Under the pieces are notes generated by a model. It was not told the DNA's origin and did no database searches. It saw only the letters and a list, made by a program, of their open reading frames with translations. Of a stretch of DNA of 35,690 bases, positions 1-35,690 are shown piece after piece; within the stretch, counting starts at the first letter, position 1, and each line of letters starts with the position of its first letter. The stretch lies in the IMG/VR virus record IMGVR_UViG_3300045988_151125; one strand, given 5' to 3'. A program made the position numbers and the translations under genes. The DNA is from a virus.

Positions 1-119
1 CCACAGTGCAAGATACGCATTGTGGGTTTCTTTATATAGGGGCATAGCTCAGTTGGTAGAGCAGCGGTCTCCAAAACCGCGTGCCGAGGGTTCGAATCCT
101 TCTACCCCTGCCATCCATA
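1..119. repeat. Left arm of a perfect 119-bp terminal inverted repeat
   Basis: nt 1-119 are the exact reverse complement of 35572-35690. Similarity continues imperfectly (one indel, a few SNPs) to ~190 on the left and ~35505 on the right. Confidence 0.95.
38..113 (+). tRNA. trnW: tRNA-Trp (anticodon CCA)
   Basis: 76-nt cloverleaf. Acceptor is AGGGGCA/TACCCCT with one C6:A67 mismatch. Anticodon stem GCGGT/ACCGC carries loop CTCCAAA. T arm is GAGGG-TTCGAAT-CCTTC, with discriminator G and encoded CCA. Confidence 0.9.
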
Positions 120-190
120 ATCCGAAAAAAATCATTGTGTTGCCTATCGGTCTGATAGTTGCAGACTTTGCATTTTTTCGGTAAACGAGT
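114..190 (-). repeat. Copy a of the tRNA-Trp trailer unit (inverted relative to copies b, c, d)
   Basis: The reverse complement reads TTTACCGAAAAAATGCAAAGTCTGCAACTATCAGACCGATAGGCAACACAATGATTTTTTTCGGATTATGGA. It is near-identical to 740-812 and 35505-35577, and partly to 34374-34416. Confidence 0.85.
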
Positions 191-700
191 AGGAGGTTCT
201 CCTTAAAGAGCCGGCCTCTCACATCACCGTGCGTACCGACCGGTACATGGCGGTTCAACCGCATGAGTGCAAGAACTCGTAGTAGTTAGGGATGCTAAAG
301 TATCCCGCTGCTACGAGTCTTTTGTTTGTAATGGAACATTTTAATACAGGACTGCCGGCGATACGTCAATAGCCCAGTCTGGAATTTCCCCACTGGTAAG
401 CCCTGTCGGCCGGGATGCCCAGCTTTCTCAAGTTGGCAACCTTCGTTTTGGGCTTCTTCCACTGCTTCCAGATGTACATCGAAACCTGCGCCGCATCCAT
501 TCATCTCAAAACGTCAGCGTCCGCTTCATATGCCACACGAAAATAGCCAATCCAACCACGGATAGACACTTTCACTTCCTGCATCACTCTGCGGACATTG
601 CGTCTACGGTTTTGCTTTGTAAGAAGTTTCAGCGTTTTCTTTGCCCTGGCAAGAGACTTTCGGTGTTCACCACCTGGTTGTTGCTCTTGCCGGGCGCAAA
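189..700 (-). mobile_element. Internally deleted group IIC intron remnant (5' end, 3' part of the IEP ORF, domains V and VI)
   Basis: The minus strand starts TTGCGCCCGGCAAGAG right after a terminator hairpin and T-run, the typical IIC insertion context. Domain V-like hairpin GAACCGCCATGTACCGGTCGGTACGCACGGTG lies at 225-256 with a CGC triad. A DVI-like GGAGAACCTCC hairpin precedes the 3' end near 189. About 500 nt remain of an element that is normally ~1.9 kb or longer. Confidence 0.65.
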
Positions 701-716
701 ACCGAAAAAACCCCAC
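255..716 (-). pseudogene. Group II intron reverse transcriptase/maturase, C-terminal (X/thumb) fragment with in-frame stops
   Basis: A single frame reads ..VSIRGWIGYFRVAYEADADVLR*MDAAQVSMYIWKQWKKPKTKVANLRKLGIPADRAYQWGNSRLGY*RIAGSPVLKCSITNKRLVAAGYFSIPNYYEFLHSCG*. The RGWxxYF and IWKQWKKPKT maturase motifs are present. In-frame TGAs lie at 501-503 and 366-368, the latter at the conserved GYW Trp. The RT domain is absent. Confidence 0.7.
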
Positions 717-2448
717 CGGTTTGCCCGGTGGGGGTTTTCTGTTTTACCGAGAAAAAATAAAGTCTGCAACTATCAAGCCGATAGGCAACACAATGATTTT
801 TCCGGATATGGATGGCAGGGGTAGACCGTTGCCGGTCGTATCCAAAAAATGTGTCAAGTTCGGATAATGGCGCAGTTATGAGGTTTTCGGGCAGTTTATC
901 CGGGGCGATGTGCGCGGGATTCAGGACGATGCGCACCCGATGACCGCCGTCGTCGTCATCGTACACAATAATTTTCTCGACAAATTCACGGATAAACGCC
1001 CGCAGCTGTTCCGGCTGCATATTTTCAAGCCGGATATTTGTCCAGACCCGGCGCAGCTGTTCCACTGTGTCCGCCGTCTTGCGGGCATCCTCCCCCAGCG
1101 CGTCCACTTCTGCTTGCAGGGTGGCTTGCTGTTGTCGAAGGTCGTTTATGCGCTGAATGGTGAACGGCGCGTCAAGTCCGTTCTCTATGGCGGCATAAAG
1201 CCGATCAATTTTTTGCTGTAAAATGCCTATTTCTTTCCGCAACTCGCTGGCGCGTTCTGCCGGGGGCGTTCCCGGCAGCGTAGCGCCCAGCACAGCGGCG
1301 CAGATCGCGTCCATCGTTTCGGGGCGCAGGACAACGTGCTGCAGGTAGTCAACGACCGCCTTTTCCAGTTTGTCGGCGGGCACGGCGCGGACGTGCGCCC
1401 CATCGTCGTGCAAGCGCTTCTTATTGATACAGCTGTAATACCTGTATTCGACCGGCTGCCCATGGCTTTTATACCGGCGCATTTCGCCGCCCATCTGCCC
1501 GCCGCACCCGCCGCAGACGACCAGCCCGGAAAGCAAATAAAACGCTTTTGCCTTGTGCTGGGCATTGCGATGGCGGCGCTTTTCCATTTCGTCCTGTACG
1601 CGCTGCCAGTCTGCCGGATCTATGATTCGCGGCATACCGTTTTCGACGCAGACCCATTCGTCGCGGGGCTTCAACCGCCTGCGGTTGGTCTTGCCGTCAA
1701 AGTCGGCGGGCGCAAGGCGGTTCCAGATATACAGCCCGGTATATTTTTCGTTTCTCAAAATGTCGTATAGGCTATTTTTCCCAAACGGACGCCCCCGGCG
1801 GGTCGTGTAGCCGCCCGCGTTCAGCGCGTCGAGGATACCGGCATAACCAACATCTTGCAGATACAGCCGGAAAATCAGCTGCACCGCTTCCGCCTCGCGC
1901 GGGGCAACGACAAATTTGCCGGTCGTCTTATCCACGGCATAGCCCAGCGGCGGCGGCCCGCCTGTGTTGCGGGCGCTCATGGCATTTTCTCGCAAGCCTT
2001 TAACAACCTCTTGCGCAAGGTTCGCACTGTACCACTGATTTATCGCTTTCGTGACGTTCCGCATGAACTGCCCTTGCGGGGTGTCGTCGAAATGTTCCGA
2101 CGCCGACAGGACGCGAACACCATACCGCCGCAGCTGTGCTTCGACAAGGGTCTGCCGTTCCGCATTGCGGAAAAAGCGGTCGAGCTTGTGGACAATAATA
2201 AACTGCGCCCCGCCATTGATGGCATCCTGCACCATCTGGGTGAACTGCGGGCGCTCGCCGTTCCGTCCGCTGTTGCCGTGATCCTTGTAGACCTTTACCA
2301 ACTCAAAGCCGGACGCGGCAGCATAGGACACAATAGCCCGCTGCTGTGCCTCGATACTTTCTTCACGCTGCCCGGTCGTGGACTTGCGGCAGTAGCCGAA
2401 CGCGCGGGGCATATAATTATAAGCGTTGATGCGTTCCAAGATTATCAC
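667..2448 (-). CDS. Large serine recombinase (integrase)
   Basis: N-terminal resolvase motif AFGYCRKSTTGQ (catalytic Ser), a recombinase domain, a zinc-ribbon LVVCGGCGG...YYSC and a coiled-coil. The GTG start overlaps the upstream stop as GTGA. The last ~55 codons run through attL and the terminator hairpin. Confidence 0.9.
   Translation of the reverse strand: MIILERINAYNYMPRAFGYCRKSTTGQREESIEAQQRAIVSYAAASGFELVKVYKDHGNSGRNGERPQFTQMVQDAINGGAQFIIVHKLDRFFRNAERQTLVEAQLRRYGVRVLSASEHFDDTPQGQFMRNVTKAINQWYSANLAQEVVKGLRENAMSARNTGGPPPLGYAVDKTTGKFVVAPREAEAVQLIFRLYLQDVGYAGILDALNAGGYTTRRGRPFGKNSLYDILRNEKYTGLYIWNRLAPADFDGKTNRRRLKPRDEWVCVENGMPRIIDPADWQRVQDEMEKRRHRNAQHKAKAFYLLSGLVVCGGCGGQMGGEMRRYKSHGQPVEYRYYSCINKKRLHDDGAHVRAVPADKLEKAVVDYLQHVVLRPETMDAICAAVLGATLPGTPPAERASELRKEIGILQQKIDRLYAAIENGLDAPFTIQRINDLRQQQATLQAEVDALGEDARKTADTVEQLRRVWTNIRLENMQPEQLRAFIREFVEKIIVYDDDDGGHRVRIVLNPAHIAPDKLPENLITAPLSELDTFFGYDRQRSTPAIHIRKNHCVAYRLDSCRLYFFSVKQKTPTGQTGGVFSVLRPARATTRW
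705..739. terminator. Bidirectional rho-independent terminator shared by the two convergent tRNA-Trp units
   Basis: AAAAAACCCCACCGG-TTTGC-CCGGTGGGGGTTTT: a 9-10 bp GC stem with an A-run on one side and a T-run on the other. Confidence 0.75.
705..825 (+). repeat. attL-side direct repeat (terminator, trailer copy b, last 13 nt of tRNA-Trp)
   Basis: 705-825 matches 35467-35590 apart from compensatory changes in the hairpin, one SNP and a T-run length difference. TGGCAGGGGTAGA at 813-825 is the reverse complement of the tRNA 3' end. Homology stops at 825/826. Confidence 0.8.
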
Positions 2449-3446
2449 TCCAGCAAGTCATCAAGGGCATGTTCAAATACCTTTTCAATTAAATAGCAAT
2501 CAGTAAGACCGCTGTGCGGTTTGTCGGAGTATATGTGGCAATTTTCAAGAACTTCGTCAAGCTTAAAGGAATCCAAGTCAGAACTGTAAACTTTTCGAAC
2601 AAGCGGAAGCATATCATAAAAACGGCGTTTTGTCGAAACTATGTCTATGCCACGCGAAAACAGAAATTTCAAATCAAAAGGCAGACTATAACCGATAATT
2701 GCAGAAGAACCAAGGAAAGAAACAAAGGACGTCGCAACCTGCGACAGTGTAGGAGCGCCCGCAACGTCTGCGTCGGTAATACCATTGACGGCGGTCGCTT
2801 CGGGCGGAATAGTCGTTCCCGGATTGACAAGCGTTTCAAATGCAGCAATCGGCTCGTAATCTTCATAACGGATAGCAGAAAGTTTAAGTATTCGCCCGCC
2901 CTGTACTTTTAAGCCGTTGGTTTCGACAGAAAGGACGACAAAAGCGGGCAAACGGTCACGGTTGAACGCCGTGCCGATACCTGTATAACTGACTATCGGC
3001 ATATCAGACAGCGCGAGCCGATGCAGGACGGTGGATCCGTCAAGCTCTATTTTTGTTCTGGGAATTGCCGCTACTGCGTGGGTAACGTCGCGGCATTCAT
3101 CCGCGCGGTGTGCTTCTATGCGGTGGCTGCGCTCGACGTTTTCAAGTATTGTGTCGTAGGGGCTTTGTGATGCAGGGAGATAGCCATAAAGTCCGCTATA
3201 ATTTTTGTCTTTCCCTGTTCTAAGTTCTGCGCGGATTTTTCTGTCAATTTCGTGTTTGTCAATGGTTGCGCAATAATCAAGAAACCGCTGCCCTGCTTCG
3301 GCTTTGTTGATGTACCCTTTTGCAACCTTATAATCGCCGTATAAAGTGCGGAACGTTGTGTAGTTTCCGGAAGCACGCGGTTCAGAAGATTCTTGCTGCG
3401 GCGTGGTTTCGCTCTTCTTACCGAACAATGCGGACAGAAAGCCCAT
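2445..3446 (-). CDS. DEDDh (DnaQ-like) 3'-5' exonuclease domain protein with an unassigned ~165-aa N-terminal region
   Basis: ExoI-like FVVLSVETNGL, ExoII-like IIGYSLPFDLKFL and ExoIII-like HSGLTDCYLIEKVF motifs. GC is roughly 40-48% against ~60% in the flanks. Confidence 0.75.
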   Translation of the reverse strand: MGFLSALFGKKSETTPQQESSEPRASGNYTTFRTLYGDYKVAKGYINKAEAGQRFLDYCATIDKHEIDRKIRAELRTGKDKNYSGLYGYLPASQSPYDTILENVERSHRIEAHRADECRDVTHAVAAIPRTKIELDGSTVLHRLALSDMPIVSYTGIGTAFNRDRLPAFVVLSVETNGLKVQGGRILKLSAIRYEDYEPIAAFETLVNPGTTIPPEATAVNGITDADVAGAPTLSQVATSFVSFLGSSAIIGYSLPFDLKFLFSRGIDIVSTKRRFYDMLPLVRKVYSSDLDSFKLDEVLENCHIYSDKPHSGLTDCYLIEKVFEHALDDLLE

Positions 3447-3532: not shown

Positions 3533-3901
3533 TTATGCGTTTTGGGAAACAGGACAAGACGCCCCCTCCCCATATAGGGCGGCGTATTCGTGTTCCAAAA
3601 TGTTAAGTACAGCAGATTGACCGCGGGCATCAAGTGCGCGGAATTTGTCAATTAAAAGCTGTTCTGCGGTTGATAGGCTGCTGCTTTCTGCGGACAAAGG
3701 CGAAAAACTATCTTGAAAAAGGAAATTCGGTTCTACATTCAAAACATCGAATATTTGAAGAAGAACAACGTCTTTCGGGCTGCTGACACCGTTTTCATAA
3801 TTGCCGACAGCCGATTTTGTAATACCAAGTTTCTTTGCTAATTCGAGCTGCGTAAGCCCAGCGCTTTCGCGTGCCTGTCGAAGGCGTGTTGCAAATGACA
3901 T
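3533..3901 (-). CDS. XRE-family HTH repressor (cI-like)
   Basis: MSFATRLRQARESAGLTQLELAKKLGITKSAVGNYENG is a classic HTH_3 motif. The RBS is AGGGAGGG. The gene is divergent from a cro-like gene. The ORF-track start at 3997 is rejected in favour of the ATG at 3901. Confidence 0.85.
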   Translation of the reverse strand: MSFATRLRQARESAGLTQLELAKKLGITKSAVGNYENGVSSPKDVVLLQIFDVLNVEPNFLFQDSFSPLSAESSSLSTAEQLLIDKFRALDARGQSAVLNILEHEYAALYGEGASCPVSQNA

Positions 3902-3925
3902 TTTGGCATCCCTCCCTTTTATTAC

Positions 3926-3954
3926 AGTATATAGGCGGCATCTCAAAAAGTCAA
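3926..3954 (-). promoter_or_regulatory. Putative repressor (maintenance) promoter
   Basis: On the minus strand, TTGACT (3949-3954), a 17-nt spacer and TATACT (3926-3931) sit upstream of the cI-like RBS. Confidence 0.6.
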
Positions 3955-3961
3955 GATAAAA

Positions 3962-4037
3962 GTACAAGAAAATTGTACAAAGGTCTTGACAGTACAAGAT
4001 AATTGTGCTATTTTAAGGATGTCCAAGAAACTTGTAC
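3962..4037. promoter_or_regulatory. Three 17-bp palindromic operators plus the rightward early promoter
   Basis: O1 is GTACAAGAAAATTGTAC (3962-3978), O2 is GTACAAGATAATTGTGC (3992-4008) and O3 is GTCCAAGAAACTTGTAC (4021-4037). TTGACA at 3986-3991 and TATTTT at 4009-4014 flank O2 with an exact 17-nt spacer. Confidence 0.7.
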
Positions 4038-4055: not shown

Positions 4056-4280
4056 ATGGAAGTAACCGAAACTATTACTAAAATTATTTCGGACAGATGT
4101 ATGAAACAGGCGGCTGTTGCAAGGGCTGCCGGATACACGCCGAAACAGTTCAATAACCTGCTTCATGGCAGAAAGCGCTTCACCGCGGACGACGTTGTCC
4201 CGATTTGCAAAGCCCTGTCGATTACGCCGAACGAACTTTTTCGATATGGGCAACACCCCGGCGGCATAACGGAGGGCTGA
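4056..4280 (+). CDS. Cro/XRE-like HTH early regulator
   Basis: MEVTETITKIISDRCMKQAAVARAAGYTPKQFNNLLHGRKRFT. RBS GGAGGTG lies 8 nt upstream of the ATG. Confidence 0.75.
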   Translation: MEVTETITKIISDRCMKQAAVARAAGYTPKQFNNLLHGRKRFTADDVVPICKALSITPNELFRYGQHPGGITEG

Positions 4281-4282
4281 CG

Positions 4283-4498
4283 ATGACACTGTACAGCGTT
4301 CTGATGCTTTCAATTCTGTGGGCGGTTGCTGCTGCGTGTGCGTTCGTCCATACAGCAACAGCCGCAACGCATGAATTTGAAATGACAGGCAAGCTGTCAA
4401 AGCGCTGGTGGCTGGGTTCTCTTCTGTATCTGCTTTACGCGCTGCTCGTCTGCGCTGCTATCACTATATTTTTACTACGGTACGCAGACCTTTTGTGA
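4283..4498 (+). CDS. Small membrane protein (two predicted TM helices)
   Basis: The RBS GGAGGG lies in the upstream junction motif. Hydrophobic segments are LMLSILWAVAAACAFV and LLYLLYALLVCAAITIFLL. Confidence 0.55.
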   Translation: MTLYSVLMLSILWAVAAACAFVHTATAATHEFEMTGKLSKRWWLGSLLYLLYALLVCAAITIFLLRYADLL

Positions 4499-4856
4499 TT
4501 TCGCTTAAAAGTTCCACAGTGCCTTCGCAATATTCGGGATCTGTAAGCATAGTGCTAAACTGTTGCATTTTGGGCAGGATTTCAGCTGGCGCGTATAGTT
4601 CCGCTTTTGCAGATGCAGCGCCGAAAGCTGCGATATTTTCTGGCGACGAATAGGCGGAGCACCGCCCGGCTGCAATTACATAAGCATCAAATATTTCTAT
4701 AATGCGCTGCGTTTGTCGTTGATTTTCGGCGTTTTCGAGTTCGAGCTTTTTTAGATTATATTCAGCTTGACTTTTGATTTTCGTAGTAATAACCGGCGCG
4801 ACAACGGCAGAAATGCCAAGGATAACGCTAAATGTGACAGTAAAATCAAAATTCAT
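4464..4856 (-). CDS. N-terminally membrane-anchored protein of unknown function (immunity-region moron)
   Basis: ATG with RBS AAAGGGG. TM segment FTVTFSVILGISAVVAPVI. AT-rich. Its 3' end overlaps the convergent gene 4283-4498 by 35 nt. Confidence 0.6.
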   Translation of the reverse strand: MNFDFTVTFSVILGISAVVAPVITTKIKSQAEYNLKKLELENAENQRQTQRIIEIFDAYVIAAGRCSAYSSPENIAAFGAASAKAELYAPAEILPKMQQFSTMLTDPEYCEGTVELLSEITKGLRTVVKI

Positions 4857-4967
4857 AAACAAAACCCCTTTACAAATTATTTAGTAAAAAATACCACAAA
4901 AACGAGAAAAGCACAAGAATCTCTGCCAGTCGTATCCAAAAAGCGGCGGCATAACGGAGAGCTGAAA

Positions 4968-29387: not shown

Positions 29388-30251
29388 ATGCTTTTGAACA
29401 ACTTACCCGGCGCGGCTGCGGTGGCATCTGCGCATAAAATCGTTGTTACGACCGACGACGGCGACAAGACCATCACCGCCGAACAGCTGCGGGCGTGGGC
29501 AGAAAACGAAGCCGCCCACCCATACAACTACGGCAAGGAAATTGCCCTGACGTGGGATGAAATCAGCGCCAAGACGAAAAAAGGCGACTTTTCCGGGCTG
29601 CGTATCGGCGACTATAAAACCATTACGCTGACGACTGGCGAAGTCGTCATTATGGAGATTGCAGGCATTGACCCGTATTTCGGCAGCGGCGATCAGGAAG
29701 CCGGGCATCACATTTTGTGGGTGTCTCGCGACTGCCTTGCCACTACATACCAGATGCGCAGCAGCAACACCAACAACGGCACGAGCGCAGAACCTAACCC
29801 CTACCGCGCGTCCGCGCTGTTCAGCACCCTGCAAAACACAATTTTCCCCACCGTTCCGGCAGAAATCCGTGCCCACGTCATCGAAATGCGCGGCTTGCTG
29901 GAAAAGCGGTACAGCGGCAGCGGAACATTGAACAATAGCAACGACTGGTCGTGGTACAGCCGCGGAAAAGCCATTTTGCTGACGCCGATCGAGGTTTTCG
30001 GCACGGCGGGCTGGGGCGAAAGCGGATGGAGCAACGGCGGCGGCGTCAACGTACATCTGCCGCTGTTTGCCGGTTCGTCGAAACACTTCATCAAGCGCAA
30101 GGGCAACGGCGGAGAGCGCGTCAACTGGTGGCTTGCTGCGGCTTCTGCCGGAAACAGCACTAACTTCTGTCTTGTCAGCCGCTACGGCGACAGCGACAAT
30201 AGCGGCGCGAGCCATTCGTTCGGCGTGCCCCTGAGCTTTTTCACATCTTGA
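29388..30251 (+). CDS. DGR target protein (variable receptor-binding candidate, C-terminal VR)
   Basis: The last ~45 codons form the variable repeat. The C-terminus NWWLAAASAGNSTNFC(x)...FGVPL fits the style of CLec-fold DGR targets. Confidence 0.85.
   Translation: MLLNNLPGAAAVASAHKIVVTTDDGDKTITAEQLRAWAENEAAHPYNYGKEIALTWDEISAKTKKGDFSGLRIGDYKTITLTTGEVVIMEIAGIDPYFGSGDQEAGHHILWVSRDCLATTYQMRSSNTNNGTSAEPNPYRASALFSTLQNTIFPTVPAEIRAHVIEMRGLLEKRYSGSGTLNNSNDWSWYSRGKAILLTPIEVFGTAGWGESGWSNGGGVNVHLPLFAGSSKHFIKRKGNGGERVNWWLAAASAGNSTNFCLVSRYGDSDNSGASHSFGVPLSFFTS
30116..30239 (+). repeat. DGR variable repeat (VR)
   Basis: A 124-bp match to 30776-30899. All 13 mismatches are at TR adenines. Confidence 0.9.
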
Positions 30252-30314
30252 ATCTGCGCCGCCCATCTCGCCGCTTTATGCGGCGGAATGAGGGCGGCGA
30301 AAGGAAGTTAAAAA

Positions 30315-30752
30315 ATGAGCGTACCAAAACGCAACCGCAAGCCCAGCCGCATGGAATTTCTGGTTTTATGCGACGAAATCCGCGCGGATACCACCCGCGT
30401 GTTGATGAATCGCAGACTTGTGGAGCCGAAATGGAAATATACCGTTGCGGTTCCGGGCATTCAGATGGCGCAACAAATTTGCTGGTACATCAAGGCAGCG
30501 AACTACATTTTCCCCAAAGATGAAACAGCCCTCGCCACCCGCCGAGAACTGCAATATAAAGCGCTGGGCGCTTGCGCGGGGCTTGCCGACCATTTCCGCT
30601 ATTGCCTCGAAACCCTGTGCGAAACCGACCTGAACGGCAGCCCGAAAAACCTTGTTGAAAGATTCGGGAAAATTTGCGAGAAGATCAACAAGCTGGTGGA
30701 CGTCCTGAAGGGTTGGCAGGCAAGCGACACGGTGCGCACGCCGAAAGAATGA
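30315..30752 (+). CDS. avd: DGR accessory variability determinant (Avd-like four-helix-bundle protein)
   Basis: 145 aa, basic, located between VR and TR as in the canonical target-avd-TR-RT order. Confidence 0.75.
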   Translation: MSVPKRNRKPSRMEFLVLCDEIRADTTRVLMNRRLVEPKWKYTVAVPGIQMAQQICWYIKAANYIFPKDETALATRRELQYKALGACAGLADHFRYCLETLCETDLNGSPKNLVERFGKICEKINKLVDVLKGWQASDTVRTPKE

Positions 30753-30775
30753 TCCTACGGGTTTTCCGCTGTTTC

Positions 30776-30899
30776 GCGCGTCAACTGGTGGCTTGCTGCG
30801 GCTTCTGCCGGAAACAGCACTAACTTCTGTAATGTCAACAACAACGGCAACAGCAACAATAACAACGCGAGCAATTCGTTCGGCGTGCCCCTGAGATTT
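30776..30899 (+). repeat. DGR template repeat (TR)
   Basis: Non-coding. Its A-rich core AATGTCAACAACAACGGCAACAGCAACAATAACAAC would read N-V-N-N-N-G-N-S-N-N-N-N in the VR frame. Confidence 0.9.
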
Positions 30900-31139
30900 G
30901 CGGTTCAGCCAGTATTACGAGTAGGGCGGAAACCGCCTAAAAGACAGAGCATACCGCAAAGGAGTGGGAGACCCTGCCGGAAACGGCTAAATAAGGCGCA
31001 GCCTGCTGAAAGGCTGCAAGTCCGATGCGGCAGGTCGGACGCTTCTTGCATGGCTGGCGGCGCGGCAACCGCCAGCTGCATGGCCTGCCGCCCAGTAGTC
31101 CAGATACCGCACCATATAAGACTATACGGAGCCACCAAA
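30900..31139 (+). ncRNA. TR-to-RT spacer, presumed part of the DGR template/priming RNA
   Basis: 240 nt between the TR and the RT start. The ORF track shows it as an N-terminal extension of the RT, but there is no RBS and no RT similarity there. Confidence 0.45.
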
Positions 31140-32321
31140 ATGACAAGCAAGGAAAGACACGACAGACGATACGAACGGAGGCAACAACATCGAAAACAAA
31201 AGCAGACCGCCGCCCTTGTAGCGGCAAACGATTTTGACCGGGTTATCAGCTATAAAAGCCTGTACGCAGCCGCCCGGAAATGCCGGAAAGGTGTCTACTG
31301 GAAGGACAGCGTGCGCCGGTTTTATGCGAATTTACTGCTAAATCTGGCAGAAATCCACACAAGGCTTGAAAAGGGGCAGAGCTGCCACCAAAAGACCAAC
31401 CATTTTGTGATATGTGAGCGTGGACACCTGCGAGCTATCACAAGTCATAGATTCGGCGAGCGCGTAGTGCAGACGGCAATCAACAGCGAAATGCTGGTGC
31501 CGATGCTTACGCGCTCGCTGATTTACGACAACGGCGCAAGCCAGACCGGGAAAGGCACAGACTTTGCAGCCGACCGGCTGGAAACTGCCCTGCACAGGTA
31601 CTACGACCACCACGGCAACAACCGGGGCGCAATCGCGCTGCTGGATTTCCACGACTTTTTCGGTAGTATCGTCAAGGCGGAAGCGCTGGGCGACGTCGCC
31701 GAGAAATGCACAGACGCCCGCCTTATGCGTCTGCTATGCCAAGAGGTCAAGCCGGGCGGCGACGTGGGCATAGGGCTGGGCAGCCCGCTGAATCAAACGC
31801 TTGCGGTCAACTACGTCAACCGCTGCGACCATCGGCTTGAAAACACGCCGGGGGTTGAGGCAGTGGGCGTCTACATGGACGACAGGTGGATACTGGCGGA
31901 AAGCCGGGAAGTTCTGCGGGCGGCACTGGCGGCGATAACGCCGGAGCTGAAAGCCAAGGGCTTGCAGCTGAACACAGCGAAAACCAAAATCGTGCCCATC
32001 AATAAGCCGTTTCGGTATTGCCAAACGCGCTATTTTCTGTCAGACAGCGGCGCAGTTGTGCGCTTGCCGATGGGCAGAAAAACGACCCGCTGGCGGCAGA
32101 AGATTAAAGCCATGCGGCGTCTATACGACGCCGGGAAGATACCGACCGGCGAAGATATTCGCGGCTCATACGTGAGCACGCGAGCAACCTACACACGGCG
32201 AAACGCGCGGCGGGTACTGCTGCACATGGACGGGCTGTTCACGCAGCTTTTTGTACTGCCGGGCATCGCGCGACCATTGGAGGAAGGCCAAAATGGAAAA
32301 TGCAAAAAATACCACCGTTGA
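31140..32321 (+). CDS. DGR reverse transcriptase
   Basis: YMDD catalytic motif (GVYMDDRWIL), GASQTGKGTDFA, LGSPLNQTLA (motif 4-like) and LNTAKTKIV. RBS ACGGAG lies 9 nt before the ATG. Confidence 0.85.
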   Translation: MTSKERHDRRYERRQQHRKQKQTAALVAANDFDRVISYKSLYAAARKCRKGVYWKDSVRRFYANLLLNLAEIHTRLEKGQSCHQKTNHFVICERGHLRAITSHRFGERVVQTAINSEMLVPMLTRSLIYDNGASQTGKGTDFAADRLETALHRYYDHHGNNRGAIALLDFHDFFGSIVKAEALGDVAEKCTDARLMRLLCQEVKPGGDVGIGLGSPLNQTLAVNYVNRCDHRLENTPGVEAVGVYMDDRWILAESREVLRAALAAITPELKAKGLQLNTAKTKIVPINKPFRYCQTRYFLSDSGAVVRLPMGRKTTRWRQKIKAMRRLYDAGKIPTGEDIRGSYVSTRATYTRRNARRVLLHMDGLFTQLFVLPGIARPLEEGQNGKCKKYHR

Positions 32322-32794: not shown

Positions 32795-33664
32795 ATGTCT
32801 AAAATTTATGGCGCAGATTTTTCCCACCATCAGGGTACTGTTGATTGGGCGACCGTGGCGACGGAGCTGCGGCGCGTCAACGGCGGCACGTCGCCCGGCT
32901 TTGCCATTTTGCGCGCGGGCTATTCTGCCCGCCACGGCAAAGGCGGCTTGTGGACGGATGGGCAGTTCCTGCGCAATATCCGAGAGTGTGAGAAGTACGG
33001 CATCCCCATGGGCGTATATTTCTACTGTTACGACGAAAGCGCAGCAGCGGCAGAGATCACCGCCGAACAGGTTGCCGCCCTGCTGAAAGGTCACAAGTTC
33101 GCATACCCCATTTATTACGATGTGGAATACGAGCCGTTTAACACCGGCAAGGACGGCAGCGGGCGCACCTGCGCACAGGTCAAGGCAACCAACACCGCGA
33201 TGATTTCGGCGGCACTGTCGAAGCTGGAAAAGCTGGGCTACTACGCCGCCGTTTACTGTTCGCGCGACTTCTTCCTGAATTACACAAACCTGTCCGCGCT
33301 GTCGAGCTTCGACAAGTGGGAAGCTGCCTACACCGCCACCGACACCAACGCCGTGCAGAACGGTTTGTGGCAGTATTCCAGCACGAACGCGCTGGGCATC
33401 AAGGGCTTTGGAAACAAGCTGGACTGCGACGTCTGTTACCGCGACTACCCCGGCATTATGCAGGCGGCAGGGCTGAACGGCTACACGAAAACCAGCGGCA
33501 GCAACGCCGACAACGCGAACGATACTGACGACGATAGCACGACGCTGACCCAGCAGATCATCACGGTGGGCCCGGTAAGCAACGGCGACGCTGTGCAGTT
33601 CTACAAGCTGGCGCAGCAACTCGAATTGACCGCGCGCGGCCTGTACTGCGCAAAGTATGTGTAA
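32795..33664 (+). CDS. Endolysin, GH25 muramidase with a C-terminal domain
   Basis: YGADFSHHQGTVDW...GVYFYCY...YYDVEY GH25 pattern. Confidence 0.85.
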   Translation: MSKIYGADFSHHQGTVDWATVATELRRVNGGTSPGFAILRAGYSARHGKGGLWTDGQFLRNIRECEKYGIPMGVYFYCYDESAAAAEITAEQVAALLKGHKFAYPIYYDVEYEPFNTGKDGSGRTCAQVKATNTAMISAALSKLEKLGYYAAVYCSRDFFLNYTNLSALSSFDKWEAAYTATDTNAVQNGLWQYSSTNALGIKGFGNKLDCDVCYRDYPGIMQAAGLNGYTKTSGSNADNANDTDDDSTTLTQQIITVGPVSNGDAVQFYKLAQQLELTARGLYCAKYV

Positions 33665-33677
33665 CGGAGGACAGAAA

Positions 33678-34331
33678 ATGAATTTCAACGTTTTTCTCGC
33701 AAATTATATCGCAACCGCGAACAATCTGTTCGTTAAGCTGGCGGCGATTGCCGTCGTCATGGATACCGCGCTGGGCGCGTTGCGCGCGGCCAAATACCGC
33801 CGTTGGAACAGTTCGGTAGGCATTGACGGCGGCATTCGCAAGGTCGCCATGGTGCTGTCTATCCTGTTTTTGGTGGCGGTCGATATGCTGCTGCACGTCG
33901 ATGTGCTGTCGTTCGGATTCGTCAGCGAAGAGGTGCGCCAGGCGCTTGCCGCTGCAAACGTCACAAATCTGGGCATTGCGGAATTTTTCTGCCTTATGTA
34001 TATTTTGTATGAGTGTACCAGCATTTTGAAAAACGCTTTGCTGTGCGGTGTGCCCTGCCCGAAAGGACTGCAAAAGAAACTTGCCGAATGGCTGGCGCAG
34101 TTCACGGAGGAAACGAAAGAGGACGTCGTGGCAGCGGTCGGCGGGAAAGTCAAAACCCACCTCGCCACCTCGATGCTGGAAGAAATGGAAACCGACGAAC
34201 TGGAAAGCCTCGCCCTTGCAATGGGCTTGACCGTCAAAGACGGCACAGACCGTGCGGAACTTATCAAGATGATTGCCGCGACCGAGGTATACGTTGACCC
34301 CGATAACTGCACCGGCATTGCCGTGGCATAA
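33678..34331 (+). CDS. Holin (Phage_holin_4-like) with a long acidic C-terminal tail
   Basis: TM segments LAAIAVVMDTALGAL, VAMVLSILFLVAVDML and IAEFFCLMYILYECTSIL. RBS ACGGAGG. Confidence 0.7.
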   Translation: MNFNVFLANYIATANNLFVKLAAIAVVMDTALGALRAAKYRRWNSSVGIDGGIRKVAMVLSILFLVAVDMLLHVDVLSFGFVSEEVRQALAAANVTNLGIAEFFCLMYILYECTSILKNALLCGVPCPKGLQKKLAEWLAQFTEETKEDVVAAVGGKVKTHLATSMLEEMETDELESLALAMGLTVKDGTDRAELIKMIAATEVYVDPDNCTGIAVA

Positions 34332-34416
34332 CAAATAAAAGCCCCCACCGGTTTGCCCGGTGGGGGCTTTCTGTTTTACAGAGAAAAACAAAGTCTGCAA
34401 CTATCAGACCGATAGG
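34271..34416 (+). repeat. Direct repeat, left copy (holin 3' end, terminator, truncated trailer copy c)
   Basis: Imperfect match to 35394-35548. Homology ends at ..CCGATAGG. Confidence 0.8.
34341..34377. terminator. Terminator after the holin gene, probably bidirectional
   Basis: GCCCCCACCGG-TTTGC-CCGGTGGGGGC (11-bp stem), with AAAA upstream and TTTCTGTTTT downstream. Confidence 0.75.
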
Positions 34417-34437
34417 AAGCACGGAGATCACTGTTTT

Positions 34438-34908
34438 TTATTCTGCTTTTATAAAAAACACAATGCCGGAAGAGTAGTAGACCTGAAAGGAACCCTCGAC
34501 CGTTTCGGCCACGGTGTTGCCGCAATCGTAGTCGTAGATGTTGAATCTACCAGAAATCAACGTGAAGTAGTTGAAGGGCGCGGTGTCTATCTCGCCGCTG
34601 TTGTAGATGCAGAACGCGGAATCGCCGTCGCCTGCGCCGGTTGGAATCAGAACGGAGAAGGAATCATTTGCGATTTTGACCGCGCCCGCGTCGCTGACTG
34701 TATCGCGGCGGTTGCCGCTGGTAAGCTGCCACGGATCCGGCGTCGGTGGCGCGGCAAGTCGGTTGTCGGTGTAGGGTTCATCTTCGTCGATGAGCCAGTC
34801 ACGACCGACGCGGCGGGCTGTTTTGAAACCGCCGCGCAGTGCCTTTTGACGGACGGTGACGGGGCTGCGGTTGTGTCTGGCGGCGTATTCGGTAATTGTA
34901 ATTTCCAT
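34438..34908 (-). CDS. Excisionase/MerR-like HTH protein with an unassigned C-terminal domain
   Basis: ITITEYAARHNRSPVTVRQKALRGGFKTARRVGRDWLIDEDE matches the excisionase-family HTH pattern. RBS AAGGAGG. It is the second gene of a tight operon. Confidence 0.65.
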   Translation of the reverse strand: MEITITEYAARHNRSPVTVRQKALRGGFKTARRVGRDWLIDEDEPYTDNRLAAPPTPDPWQLTSGNRRDTVSDAGAVKIANDSFSVLIPTGAGDGDSAFCIYNSGEIDTAPFNYFTLISGRFNIYDYDCGNTVAETVEGSFQVYYSSGIVFFIKAE

Positions 34909-34922
34909 GGGAGCCTCCTTAA

Positions 34923-35258
34923 TTAAAGCTCGATGTTGACGTCCACGGTGATTTCTACGCCTACCGGGTTGCCGGCCTTTACAAAGGCAGAGCTGGCGGA
35001 ACGGGGCAGAATGTGGATGCTAAGGAGCGTTATGGTCTCATCGGACTGAATCAGTTCGCCGTCCTCGTCAAGCTCATCCTCTCGGTTGTAGTCGACGTAG
35101 TACTCCCAGCGACACAGGGCGTCGTCCTGACCAGTGACCCACTGCTTGCCGTTGTCCATGGCGGCGTTGGAAATTGCCTCGCGGATTTCATCGATAACAT
35201 CGTTGCTGTTGACGGAAGTGTTGGTGGCGGCGTAGATGGCATTAGAAATGGTGGTCAT
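34923..35258 (-). CDS. Small acidic protein of unknown function
   Basis: 111 aa with a strong RBS AGGAGG, driven by a consensus promoter. Contains an acidic stretch REDELDEDGELIQSDE. Confidence 0.6.
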   Translation of the reverse strand: MTTISNAIYAATNTSVNSNDVIDEIREAISNAAMDNGKQWVTGQDDALCRWEYYVDYNREDELDEDGELIQSDETITLLSIHILPRSASSAFVKAGNPVGVEITVDVNIEL

Positions 35259-35306
35259 TTTATTTTCCTCCTGTTATGTGGGTTGCTTATCTCTTTCTGT
35301 GTCTAT

Positions 35307-35335
35307 ATTATACATCGCTAGCGATGTAATGTCAA
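35307..35335 (-). promoter_or_regulatory. Consensus sigma-70-type promoter with an embedded 16-bp perfect palindrome
   Basis: On the minus strand: TTGACA (35330-35335), a 17-nt spacer and TATAAT (35307-35312). The palindrome ACATCGCTAGCGATGT occupies 35312-35327. Confidence 0.7.
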
Positions 35336-35384
35336 GGCTTTTTGCAAAGATTCTTTAGAACTTCCTGCAAAAATTGGCGTAAAG

Positions 35385-35463
35385 GCTGGCGGCGATTGCC
35401 GTCGCCGCAGCCGAGGTATATGTTGACCCCAAGAGCTGCACCAGCGTCGCCACGGCATAAACA
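35385..35463 (+). pseudogene. Internally deleted second holin copy
   Basis: 35385-35404 is identical to holin 33737-33756 and is then joined directly to a homologue of the holin 3' end (34279-34331). GATTGCCG microhomology sits at the junction. Confidence 0.65.
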
Positions 35464-35466
35464 AAT

Positions 35467-35590
35467 AAAAGCCACCACCGGGTTTGCCCGGTGGTGGCTT
35501 TCTATTTTACCGAGAAAAAATAAAGTCTGCGACTATCAAGCCGATAGGCAACACAATGATTTTTTTTCGGATATGGATGGCAGGGGTAGA
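35467..35590 (+). repeat. attR-side direct repeat (terminator, trailer copy d, tRNA 3' end)
   Basis: Matches 705-825. Confidence 0.8.
35471..35508. terminator. Terminator hairpin of the attR-side repeat (serves the minus-strand tRNA-Trp)
   Basis: GCCACCACCGGG-TTTG-CCCGGTGGTGGC (12-bp stem) flanked by AAAA and TTTCTATTTT. Confidence 0.7.
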
Positions 35591-35690
35591 AGGATTCGAA
35601 CCCTCGGCACGCGGTTTTGGAGACCGCTGCTCTACCAACTGAGCTATGCCCCTATATAAAGAAACCCACAATGCGTATCTTGCACTGTGG
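35572..35690. repeat. Right arm of the perfect 119-bp terminal inverted repeat
   Basis: Reverse complement of 1-119. Confidence 0.95.
35578..35653 (-). tRNA. trnW: tRNA-Trp (anticodon CCA), identical inverted copy
   Basis: Exact reverse complement of 38-113. Confidence 0.9.

Follow-up and report, generated by a model that had tools for sequence, protein, structure and literature searches.

In acr-aca operons, all Aca families tested so far are preceded by near-consensus -35 and -10 elements with one inverted repeat that always lies within the core promoter (Shehreen et al., 2022, PMC9410906), and the Pfam types of Aca1-12 comprise HTH_24, HTH_3, HTH_29, KORA, DUF1870 and YdaS_antitoxin (AcaFinder paper). 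The guilt-by-association criteria of AcaFinder are genes on the same strand, gaps of less than 250 bp and proteins of less than 200 aa. Repressor and inhibitor are joined in AcrIIA1 and AcrIIA13-15, where the HTH represses the protein's own promoter via an inverted repeat and the C-terminal domain inhibits (PMC9410906, PMC10901769). Every member of AcrIIA13-15 carries an N-terminal HTH ahead of the inhibitory part (PMC10901769), and the acidic C-terminal domain of AcrIIA15 mimics dsDNA (PMC9410906, PMC10901769). AcrIC5 has orthologues in Firmicutes and displays broad activity against type I-C systems (PMC7913775). Validated anti-defence genes are few for phages of the dominant gut Clostridia and are hard to find because they lack homologues.

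We analysed a cassette of ~950 bases and two genes (A and B) at the end of a gut-Clostridia prophage, contained in a 35.7-kb window (the whole stretch of DNA examined, whose positions serve as coordinates throughout). Comparison with related loci suggests that the cassette is a self-contained, horizontally exchanged and autorepressed anti-defence operon of the acr-aca type, a reading to which we assign a probability of about one half (0.52). The features of the locus are as follows.

34275..34432, unstranded: flanking repeat copy C, consisting of the holin 3' end, a terminator and part of the 59-nt tRNA-downstream sequence (77-85% identity with copy D)
34337..34371, unstranded: bidirectional hairpin terminator common to gene B (minus strand) and the holin gene (plus strand)
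34434..35384, minus strand: exchangeable module of promoter, operator, 5'UTR, gene A and gene B (93% nucleotide match to L036, L037, L042 and L046 over this span only)
34438..34743, minus strand: end of the B linker and B C-terminal domain (aa ~56-156 plus stop), acidic and beta-rich, candidate effector and/or dimerisation domain (pI 4.08, net charge -8)
34438..34908, minus strand: gene B, 156 aa, starting 14 nt past the stop of A
34759..34908, minus strand: B N-terminal domain (aa 1-50), MerR/excisionase-type winged HTH, putative Aca-like autorepressor (structural and weak HTH_17 matches)
34923..35258, minus strand: gene A, 111-aa acidic protein, variable cargo slot, candidate inhibitor (pI 4.05, net charge -15)
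35307..35335, minus strand: consensus sigma-70 promoter, -35 TTGACA at 35330-35335, 17-nt spacer, -10 TATAAT at 35307-35312 (12/12 match)
35311..35328, unstranded: 18-bp perfect palindromic operator TACATCGCTAGCGATGTA, putative B-dimer site, extending a 16-bp palindrome (ACATCGCTAGCGATGT, 35312-35327), filling the spacer and covering the first two bases of the -10
35404..35564, unstranded: flanking repeat copy D, including a 66-nt remnant of a holin 3' end and a second terminator (35467-35502), extending into attR
35481..35590, unstranded: attR, ~110 nt, 95% identical to attL (718-826), taking in the last 13 nt of tRNA-Trp (35578..35653)

The cassette promoter was the only sigma-70 match of at least 11/12 on either strand of the window, where first-order Markov simulations of the window gave chance expectations of 0.0 at 12/12 and 0.08 at 11/12 or better. 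TACATCGCTAGCGATGTA was also the only palindrome in the window with arms of at least 9 nt (0.18 expected by chance). The size of the palindrome alone is not compelling and becomes so because the same CTAG-centred element holds one and the same promoter position in 25/25 related loci. The promoter itself is conserved in the 25 related loci and in an array that contains an AcrIC5 homologue (L012). The locus therefore shows the near-consensus promoter with an inverted repeat in its core that is characteristic of acr-aca operons (12/12 match; 18-bp palindrome; 25 loci). No second copy of the palindrome was found in the prophage at up to three mismatches, so B would be a local rather than a global regulator. 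Both genes are preceded by an AGGAGG-type ribosome binding site (35267-35272 for A, 34914-34920 for B), and an Rfam scan found no known RNA inside the cassette.

The modelled layout of B comprises a winged HTH (aa 1-50), a linker and a beta-rich part (aa 56-156) that is a candidate inhibitor domain. Foldseek against the PDB matched the N-terminus to BldC (6ama; rmsd 1.4 Å over 45 columns, 29% identity, probability 0.97), with further matches to HiNmlR, RdfS and lambda gpNu1. By sequence, its only Pfam match was a weak one to HTH_17 (E 0.028; 15 bits against a cut-off of 27), accompanied by weak matches to excisionase PHROGs; searches of PHROGs, PADLOC, NCBIfam and PDB sequence profiles with B returned nothing beyond this N-terminal HTH_17/excisionase signal. 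The B-type HTH has 1780 homologues; among the 120 listed, the majority consist of this domain alone (55-77 aa). The domain is also joined to at least four unrelated C-terminal domains, much as AcrIIA13-15 share an N-terminal HTH (PMC10901769). Judged by Pfam types, B falls outside the described Aca families (HTH_17 only, 15 bits against 27). Because its HTH lies below Pfam thresholds and outside the Pfam types of Aca1-12, guilt-by-association pipelines with those settings would miss it. The C-terminal domain was modelled as all-beta (pLDDT ~70-80) and had no significant fold match in the PDB by Foldseek; a weak, non-significant likeness to the beta-sandwich of ATP-synthase epsilon was rejected. 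In L009-L011 and L054 this domain forms a 123-aa gene by itself, upstream of an HTH_3 gene and behind a promoter (TTGCAA-17-TATAAT) that carries repeated operator-like elements. By its distribution, the domain appears to behave as cargo; it could also be merely a dimerisation or ligand-binding domain.

Protein A was modelled by AF2 with a pLDDT of 84 as two helices and a sheet of 4-5 strands. No family match was found in Pfam, PHROGs, PADLOC, NCBIfam or PDB sequence profiles, and Foldseek of the model against the PDB and BFVD returned nothing with E < 0.07 or TM > 0.43. The family is rare: an exhaustive HMMER profile search of 1.84 billion representative proteins recovered 21 clusters, two of which are fusions, one with DUF5688 and one with an 82-aa domain, partners whose function is also unassigned (we found no useful literature on DUF5688 and DUF3846). 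Homologues of A with 58-61% identity have as their partner an Xre protein of 68 aa (HTH_3) without any further domain, and lie behind a promoter (TTGAAA-17-TACAAT) with a different perfect palindrome (GTACCGCTAAAGCGGTAC) and a second copy upstream; Eubacterium sp. 14-2 has an A-like gene immediately after one that encodes a B-type HTH. Both A and the B C-terminal domain are small, acidic and non-membrane (maximum Kyte-Doolittle score in a 19-residue window < 1.2), and no enzymatic, nucleotide-binding or membrane features were detected in A or B. Small size, acidity and the lack of a known fold or family are typical of Acr proteins. Pfam and PDB searches revealed no homology of A or B to any Acr family, and no validated anti-defence protein is a homologue of either.

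The cassette is antisense to the genes of a GH25 lysin (32795..33664) and a holin (33657..34331) and lies ~100-150 nt inward of attR, which the tRNA-Trp gene (35578..35653) adjoins. In the circular phage, CI, an exonuclease gene and int lie directly upstream on the same strand. Comparison of ~30 related loci revealed 34434-35384 to be a discrete unit that retains 93% nucleotide identity across unrelated phage backbones; outside this span the backbone of L036, L037, L042 and L046 is unrelated and encodes a tyrosine integrase, holin_5_2 and Peptidase_M23. Repeat copies C and D are both present in the phage-form contig L032. All contexts in which the module was found are temperate phages. No DNA match to the module was found among deposited phages (INPHARED), where the closest TerL is that of Clostridium scindens phage phiCs5676-1 (56%), and a scan of GTDB genomes with the HTH profile found 12 distant loci (55-66% identity) and no full module.

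An earlier note on this DNA, made from the letters alone, had described much of this anatomy. Its minus-strand promoter of TTGACA-17 nt-TATAAT at 35307-35335 proved to be a full 12/12 match and the sole one at or above 11/12; its perfect palindrome was correctly located in the spacer and overlapping the -10, although at 18 bp it is longer than the 16 bp given. The 111-aa acidic protein (34923..35258; pI 4.05) followed 14 nt later by gene B was confirmed, as was the excisionase/MerR-like HTH at the B N-terminus (BldC 6ama at 1.4 Å; HTH_17 weakly). Sequence and fold searches, including Foldseek, agreed with the note that A matches no recognised family and that the B C-terminal domain is unassignable. 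The lysin, holin and attR coordinates bear out its placing of the cassette antisense to the late/lysis genes at the prophage end, and the moron position that it saw also held, between the lysis genes and attR with an own promoter and terminator. It had suggested a survey of neighbourhoods; the comparison covered ~30 related loci and showed the module to be shared by unrelated phage backbones.

Across the related loci the promoter, the operator and B (87-99% identity) are constant, whereas the slot ahead of B holds one of four cargo types: A (111 aa), an unrelated basic protein of 82 aa, a 218-aa fusion of 82-like and A-like domains, or A', a divergent 119-aa protein with 48% identity to A. Cargo swaps were seen inside both phage backbones. 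L032, the phage form of the window's phage (95-97% nucleotide identity, same integrase), has the 82-aa gene in place of A. Conversely, A is found in three HTH contexts (with B, with the 68-aa HTH_3 protein and with a protein that has a C-terminal B-type HTH), and the B C-terminal domain also pairs with HTH_3. The locus thus has the arrangement of acr-aca operons in which small variable cargo lies upstream of a conserved HTH gene with mix-and-match pairing.

The half-sites of the operator change symmetrically and follow the variant of the HTH. HTH type 1 (..NRSPVTVRQKAL) is paired with half-sites TACA[T/A]C[G/T]CT and HTH type 2 (..SRAAATVRQKAI) with TACTACGCT on both arms (half-site TACT[A/G]CGCT; operator TACTACGCTAGCGTAGTA). 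In L085, a type-2 HTH is joined to a C-terminal domain like that of the window and the operator is still type 2. A third HTH variant (..GRALATVRQKAY, P0031) goes with a third element, also centred on CTAG, in the homologous promoter of L012; this element (TGTAGAGCT / TACAGCGCT) is only an imperfect palindrome (6/9). The HTH residues that vary flank the recognition helix predicted from the model (H16-24). The rule of same HTH, same operator fails in places: P0029 (L013) has a recognition helix nearly identical to that of B, yet the promoters nearby have different inverted repeats, and L013 is an unexplained exception. The covariation comes down to two or three evolutionary events in sequences that are close relatives and physically linked, and is suggestive, short of a statistical proof. 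Since the half-site changes track the HTH variant, we infer that B binds the palindrome and represses the operon. Autoregulation through the palindrome, which the earlier note had proposed, gains support from these comparative data (conserved position; half-sites tracking the HTH).

The gene immediately behind the homologous promoter-operator of L012, and driven by it, encodes an AcrIC5 homologue (PF22147; 91.3 bits, cut-off 27, E 4e-26). This gene forms an array on one strand with four short genes and the gene of P0031, a protein with a B-type HTH; gaps in the array are 11-111 nt and all of its proteins have at most 143 aa. The AcaFinder-type association with a known Acr is therefore found in the relative L012 and not in the window, which contains no known acr gene. 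The AcrIC5 link comes from a single contig family (L012), and the HTH protein there has no more than the N-terminal domain in common with B. Among candidate targets, type I-C CRISPR-Cas comes first only because the homologous promoter-operator drives an AcrIC5 homologue in an array with a B-type HTH gene.

The repression kinetics, anti-defence activity and target that we infer would combine in the following way. When phage DNA enters a cell that holds no B, the consensus promoter would fire at full strength and give an early burst of A and B. As B built up it would dimerise, and its N-terminal winged HTH would bind the 18-bp palindrome across the spacer and the edge of the -10, where it would occlude RNA polymerase. 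Expression of the operon would then drop to a low maintenance level and would remain so in the lysogen. Protein A and, probably, the B C-terminal domain, both of them acidic, would be the payloads, and B would then be a bifunctional repressor-effector like AcrIIA1 and AcrIIA13-15. These payloads may bind and block a component of host immunity, possibly via nucleic acid mimicry.

The earlier note had left toxin-antitoxin (TA), superinfection exclusion, defence and anti-defence unranked; anti-defence is now favoured, and a cognate TA pair is argued against by the constancy of B at loci where unrelated genes freely take the place of the first gene. Such a pair, of type II or abortive-infection kind in HigBA-like order, would have A as the toxin and B as HTH antitoxin and autorepressor, with the C-terminal domain neutralising A. 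A small protein followed after 14 nt by an HTH protein, with an operator in the pair's own promoter, is what it would look like, and some Aca proteins resemble the antitoxins HigA2 and GraA (PMC9410906), so TA and acr-aca architectures are hard to separate by sequence. A strong two-gene module under autorepression at the end of a prophage may also be a TA system or a defence moron. However, B stays 87-99% identical while the gene upstream is A, the basic 82-aa protein, the fusion or A', and a single neutralising domain is unlikely to suit such different 'toxins'. A is also paired with the 68-aa Xre protein that lacks an extra domain, the B C-terminal domain is itself found in the cargo slot ahead of an HTH_3 gene, and A (pI 4.05) matched no toxin fold and no PADLOC, Pfam or NCBIfam family, all of which make a TA pair improbable. 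Somewhat better placed, if still rather unlikely, is a moron for defence, superinfection exclusion or another lysogenic conversion, in which the lysogen would express A and B against incoming phages or for the benefit of the host and B would set the dose by autorepression. Defence hotspots in prophages are polymorphic between near-identical phages, and this locus is polymorphic in the same way among otherwise near-identical phages; it is also placed after the lysis genes and before attR, on the strand opposite to the late operon, with a promoter and a terminator of its own, and every context found is a temperate phage. Against this stand the lack of a PADLOC match for A or B at E ≤ 1 and the lack of enzymatic, nucleotide-binding or membrane features in proteins whose length (~80-160 aa), acidity and orphan folds are more typical of inhibitors than of defence effectors. 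The homologous promoter-operator, moreover, drives a homologue of AcrIC5, a counter-defence gene, and a full-consensus promoter with an operator in its core suits burst-then-shut-off better than steady expression in the lysogen.

Two further readings assign the cassette to the phage's own housekeeping. In an internal regulatory module (antirepressor or lysis-lysogeny modulator), B would control transcription and carry a sensor domain, and A would be its small regulatory partner; this would agree with the position of the cassette in the circular phage, immediately after CI, the exonuclease gene and int and in the same orientation, and with an HTH joined to a second, possibly ligand-binding, domain. 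Such a role is distinctly improbable, more so than a TA pair, as there is a single operator copy in the prophage, the module moves between unrelated backbones with different lysogeny modules, and the first gene is dispensable and replaceable. Least probable by far is a recombination directionality factor (RDF) module, with B as an Xis-like DNA-bending protein or A as an RDF that binds the large serine recombinase. The excisionase fold of the B N-terminus with its weak PHROG matches points that way, as does the abutment of the cassette on attP/attR. Three different lineages (the window, L018/L063 and L078) also have an A-like gene beside the gene of a large serine recombinase. Some phages that carry this module (93% nucleotide identity) nevertheless encode a tyrosine integrase (L035) or lack a serine recombinase gene within 4 kb of it (L036-L046), and A proteins with 59-61% identity lie beside integrases with only 31%. 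What varies with the HTH is a promoter palindrome and not direct repeats in an att arm, and lysogeny would be destabilised if an RDF were expressed from a 12/12 promoter. The serine integrase of the window is retained in L032 (96% aa identity), where A is missing from this position, and on this evidence together with that from L036 we rejected A as the RDF of the serine integrase. The combination of an Xis/RDF with a structural protein, which the earlier note had named as the case against its own proposal, is accordingly not what the module represents, given its occurrence with both serine and tyrosine integrases and the absence of A from L032.

Under the acr-aca reading, the conserved combination of promoter, CTAG-centred palindrome and excisionase-type HTH, which current Pfam-based Aca searches miss, would mark a polymorphic cargo slot, and the locus offers at least three candidate inhibitor families, each with members of less than 160 aa. 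One could tentatively go further, although we hold this to be somewhat doubtful, and propose that A, the 82-aa cargo and the B C-terminal domain are three undescribed families of immune inhibitors with orphan folds from gut-Clostridia phages, that B founds a class of bifunctional repressor-effectors with an excisionase/MerR-type winged helix in place of an Xre HTH, and that the ~1,800-member stand-alone HTH family is a new Aca-like marker. If true, a marker HTH family missed by Pfam-based pipelines could be used to mine Clostridia phages for anti-defence genes. Confirmation of the acr-aca reading would extend that principle to a new HTH class and provide a guilt-by-association handle for ~1,800 metagenome HTH genes. 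The natural set of operator and HTH variants is useful for the study of DNA-recognition specificity, and should the cassette serve defence or be a TA module instead, its exchangeable slot would remain a useful case of how morons evolve by modules.

Compared with known systems, the fold of the B N-terminal domain is the same as that of the excisionase, BldC and MerR-N winged-helix proteins. The sites of Xis and BldC are direct repeats, bound head to tail, and MerR dimerises via a long coiled coil, whereas B goes with a perfect palindrome, carries a beta-rich C-terminal domain instead and is not confined to one integrase type. Symmetric dimerisation is not known for an Xis/BldC-type domain by itself. 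Type II TA systems with the toxin first (HigBA, MqsRA) likewise have two genes, the second being an HTH autorepressor that acts on a promoter palindrome, as B is predicted to do; the first gene of the window type, unlike theirs, is freely exchanged, acidic and has no toxin fold or family match. AcrIC5 resembles A in being small and very acidic (pI 4.24 and charge -12 for the AcrIC5 homologue, pI 4.05 and -15 for A), although A is not homologous (no Pfam match) and has twice the length and a fold of mixed alpha/beta type.

AcrIIA1 of Listeria phages and AcrIIA13-15 of Staphylococcus are closer to B in plan, with ~150 aa and an N-terminal HTH followed by a C-terminal domain. They share no sequence or fold homology with B, whose HTH is of MerR/excisionase type and not Xre-like, and no AcrIIA structures were among its PDB matches by Foldseek or HMM. 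AcrIIA15, moreover, dimerises through its N-terminal domain, unlike what is known for Xis/BldC-type domains. Canonical acr-aca operons (Aca1-Aca12/13) differ from the window, which has no validated Acr and whose HTH protein is 156 aa long with an extra domain. They nevertheless share with it short genes on the same strand behind a near-consensus promoter with an inverted repeat in its core, one or more variable small acr genes upstream of a conserved HTH gene, a location in prophages and other mobile elements, and a many-to-many pairing of cargo families with HTH families.

A temperate siphovirus of Clostridia type (56% G+C) makes up the window as a prophage; its TerL shares 56% identity with the TerL of a Clostridium scindens phage. 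The lysin and holin genes lie on its right side and attR at tRNA-Trp, placing the two-gene cassette (34434-35384, minus strand) in the interval that separates the lysis genes from attR, in antisense orientation to the late operon; annotation bore out the position described in the earlier note. The features were as follows:

667..2448 (-), large serine recombinase, left side
718-826, attL, 95% identical to attR over about 110 nt, a stretch that takes in the final 13 nt of the tRNA
2445..3446 (-), RNase_T-domain protein, left side
3533..3997 (-), CI-like HTH_3 repressor, left side
32795..33664, GH25 lysin, right side
33657..34331, holin, right side
34275-34432, direct repeat copy C, about 160 nt, diverged, 77-85% identical to copy D
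34337-34371, hairpin terminator 3' of gene B, common to the convergent holin gene
34438..34908 (-), gene B, 156 aa
34923..35258 (-), gene A, 111 aa, pI 4.05, net charge -15
35404-35564, direct repeat copy D, attR-proximal, holding a 66-nt holin 3'-end remnant and a second terminator
35481-35590, attR, counterpart of attL with the same homology
35578..35653 (-), tRNA-Trp, integration target at its 3' end

In the circular phage the cassette follows int and attP directly and shares its strand with the lysogeny genes, an arrangement displayed directly by the phage-form contigs L032 and L018. Copies C and D flank the cassette, were also present in L032, and are probably a recombination scar left by module acquisition. 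The serine recombinase ORF (667-2448) runs through attL, so its last ~50 codons are bacterial-side, and the att homology, which includes the tRNA-Trp 3' end, is unusually long for a serine integrase. L018 is built likewise: it encodes a 31%-identical recombinase, and the 3' end of this int gene overlaps an attP derived from a tRNA (region 4600-4800). The two ends of the window (1-185 and 35506-35690) are an inverted repeat of 185 nt (94%), comprising two convergent tRNA-Trp genes and the sequences that flank them on either side, and the ~530 nt from the left tRNA to attL (186-717) contained no assigned feature. The prophage also carries a diversity-generating retroelement (29388-32321) with a variable repeat (30116-30239) at the 3' end of ORF 29388..30251, a template repeat (30776-30899), an Rfam RT-2 RNA (30907-31152) and a reverse transcriptase (30885..32321; RVT_1); the two repeats differed at 13 positions, 13/13 at template adenines.

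The consensus promoter reported previously was recovered in the minus-strand reading of 34200-35690 at 35335..35307 (TTGACA-17 nt-TATAAT; 12/12 consensus). It was the sole match of at least 11/12 on both strands of the window, compared to 0.0 matches at 12/12 and 0.08 at ≥11/12 in Markov-simulated windows. The palindrome, given earlier as 16 bp (ACATCGCTAGCGATGT; 35312-35327), is perfect and positioned as described, but its full length is 18 bp (TACATCGCTAGCGATGTA; 35311-35328). It occupies the promoter spacer, covers the first two bases of the -10, and was the only palindrome in the window with arms of at least 9 nt (0.18 expected).

Both genes were present as described, encoding proteins of 111 and 156 aa 14 nt apart, each preceded by an AGGAGG-type ribosome-binding site. 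Neither A nor B had a match in Pfam, NCBIfam or PADLOC, and PHROGs gave weak excisionase or TerS-N-terminus signals for the B N-terminus and nothing else. The AlphaFold2 model of A is confident (pLDDT 84) and has a 4-5-strand sheet with two helices packed on top, with no significant Foldseek match against the PDB (best E 0.3, TM 0.36) or BFVD and no match to PDB sequence profiles, so A falls outside recognised families as the earlier note had stated. In the AlphaFold2 model of B (pLDDT 72), the N-terminal domain is a winged HTH of MerR/excisionase type that superposed on BldC (rmsd 1.4 Å, 45 columns, prob 0.97) and also matched HiNmlR, RdfS and lambda gpNu1, in agreement with the fold first recognised from sequence. 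A flexible linker then leads to an all-beta C-terminal domain which, as in the earlier note, could not be assigned, neither Foldseek nor PDB profiles giving a significant match. Both A and this domain are acidic and contain no hydrophobic segment. The A family is rare (34 clusters at 90% identity; 21 representatives in 1.84 billion proteins by exhaustive profile search) and the B-type HTH family is large and unannotated (1780 matches), with stand-alone proteins of 55-77 aa making up most of the best 120 of the 1780 matches.

A neighbourhood survey, proposed in the earlier note, covered about 30 loci encoding relatives of the cassette proteins and found the module recurring with B constant and the cargo slot variable. 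Four contigs (L036, L037, L042, L046) matched the window at 93% nucleotide identity restricted to 34434-35384, the remainder being an unrelated backbone that encodes holin_5_2 and Peptidase_M23; judged by this confined match, the cassette is a discrete unit that is horizontally exchanged. Relatives of that backbone (L002, L004, L035) encode a tyrosine integrase. Promoter, palindrome position, 5'UTR and B were conserved in 25 loci, over which the slot ahead of B held A, a basic 82-aa protein unrelated to A, a 218-aa protein with an 82-like domain fused to an A-like domain, or A' (a divergent 119-aa relative of A). In L032, the phage form of the window's own phage (95-97% nucleotide identity, same integrase), the 82-aa gene stands in place of A. 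Fusions of the A-like and 82-aa cargo domains (P0227, and the 218-aa proteins of L035, L040 and L041) mean that these two alternative cargoes are sometimes one protein. An A-like domain is also fused to DUF5688 in P0234 (450 aa), and DUF5688 adjoins an ArdC-N gene in L082.

An 18-nt element with a CTAG centre adjoined the -10 in 25/25 loci. HTH type 1 (NRSPVTVRQKAL) pairs with half-sites TACA[T/A]C[G/T]CT and type 2 (SRAAATVRQKAI) with TACTACGCT in both arms, the palindrome again being perfect; L085 kept the type-2 operator though its type-2 HTH had recombined onto a window-like C-terminal domain. Residues differing between the types flank the predicted recognition helix in the model. The symmetric two-arm change suggests, from sequence, a site bound by a symmetric dimer, for which it would be predicted, and the covariation is suggestive rather than statistical because it reflects two or three linked evolutionary events. 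L013 is an exception, its HTH variant having a near-identical recognition helix and nearby promoters with different inverted repeats. Just upstream of its HTH gene (4740-4900), TTGACG-17-TATAAT is followed by ~100 nt without an ORF and a strong terminator; the transcript may be a small RNA. We consider it likely that B represses its own promoter via the palindrome.

Elsewhere, A homologues (58-61% identity) precede a 68-aa Xre HTH_3 protein behind TTGAAA-17-TACAAT with another perfect palindrome that is repeated ~55 nt upstream, and these cassettes likewise adjoin attP or a tRNA. The B C-terminal domain is also found by itself, encoded by a 123-aa gene ahead of an HTH_3 gene, with the promoter TTGCAA-17-TATAAT and a repeated 18-nt element. 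In Eubacterium sp. 14-2 an A-like gene lies directly 3' of a gene with a B-type HTH. Across the family, B-type HTHs carry C-terminal fusions of at least four unrelated kinds. B-type-HTH genes also repeatedly adjoin a Zn-ribbon/HNH-like protein of 194-246 aa (PHROG 'HNH endonuclease', E 3e-6), the HTH being stand-alone in L020 (4280-5017) and L082 (3271-4011) and fused in L012 (5480-6220) and L013 (5436-6020). Stand-alone genes are the last of same-strand accessory arrays (L079 1307-4210, L082 3053-5221), one of which includes Amidoligase_2, GGACT, DUF3846 and DUF7659 genes and faces lysis genes in convergent orientation, while a second converges on an ArdC-N/Peptidase_M78 gene that has an MmeI-type restriction-modification gene nearby. 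Given both recurrences, stand-alone family members may not all do the same job.

In L012, a promoter homologous to the window's (TTTACA, a CTAG-centred imperfect palindrome, then TATTATATAGACA; alignment A6) lies directly ahead of an AcrIC5 homologue gene (PF22147, 91.3 bits compared to a cut-off of 27), followed by four short genes, the gene for P0031 (a B-type-HTH protein, HTH 82% identical to that of B) and a terminator. AcrIC5 is documented to have orthologues in Firmicutes and to act across species against type I-C systems (PMC7913775). One ORF of this array (4129-4572) opens with a second copy of the first part of the HTH gene (MEITLAEYAKRHGRAL) and goes on as unrelated sequence; it resembles the scar of a recombination event that brought in cargo at the 5' end of that gene.

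We put the probability that the cassette serves anti-defence at about one half; a specifically anti-CRISPR function we consider less likely than not. A defence or lysogenic-conversion moron would agree with cassette position and locus polymorphism, but is rather unlikely given that A and B have no defence-like features, PADLOC was negative and a counter-defence gene sits behind the homologous promoter of L012. The gene order would also suit a toxin-antitoxin pair, a reading we regard as improbable because the single 'antitoxin' B stays constant while unrelated proteins replace the 'toxin', and A is acidic with an orphan fold. An internal regulator or antirepressor is still less probable, since the prophage has a single copy of the operator and the module passes from one phage backbone to another. 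The excisionase-type fold at the B N-terminus, together with neighbouring attP and serine recombinase genes, would fit a recombination directionality factor, but the module also occurs in tyrosine-integrase backbones and the same serine integrase is found without A, making this highly improbable.

Under the anti-defence reading, the unrepressed promoter would fire on DNA entry, A and B would build up, and a B dimer would bind the palindrome and occlude RNA polymerase, leaving the operon idling at a low level in the lysogen. A and the B C-terminal domain would inhibit a component of host immunity stoichiometrically, perhaps, given their charge, as nucleic-acid mimics, with type I-C CRISPR-Cas the first candidate target. 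Alternatively or additionally, the C-terminal domain could serve dimerisation, as Xis/BldC-type domains are not, to our knowledge, known to form symmetric dimers by themselves. An anti-defence role would make the cassette a source of new inhibitor families for gut Clostridia phages and a new marker for mining them.

By its anatomy the cassette is a candidate for working in the manner of an acr-aca operon whose Acr-Aca protein is bifunctional; membership is not claimed. A and B have no homology to any Acr or to Aca1-12, and the HTH class of B is absent from those reported for Aca proteins. This HTH fell below the Pfam threshold, and B would escape pipelines with AcaFinder-like settings (E below 1e-3, under 150 aa). 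The proposed burst and shut-off follows from agreement with experimentally established acr-aca operons, which share near-consensus promoters with an inverted repeat always in the core promoter, where, once an initial burst has passed, Aca binding silences the operon (PMC9410906). B in turn resembles in architecture AcrIIA1 and AcrIIA13-15, proteins of about 150 aa with an N-terminal HTH autorepressor and a C-terminal inhibitor, the C-terminal parts varying behind the HTH (PMC9410906; PMC10901769).
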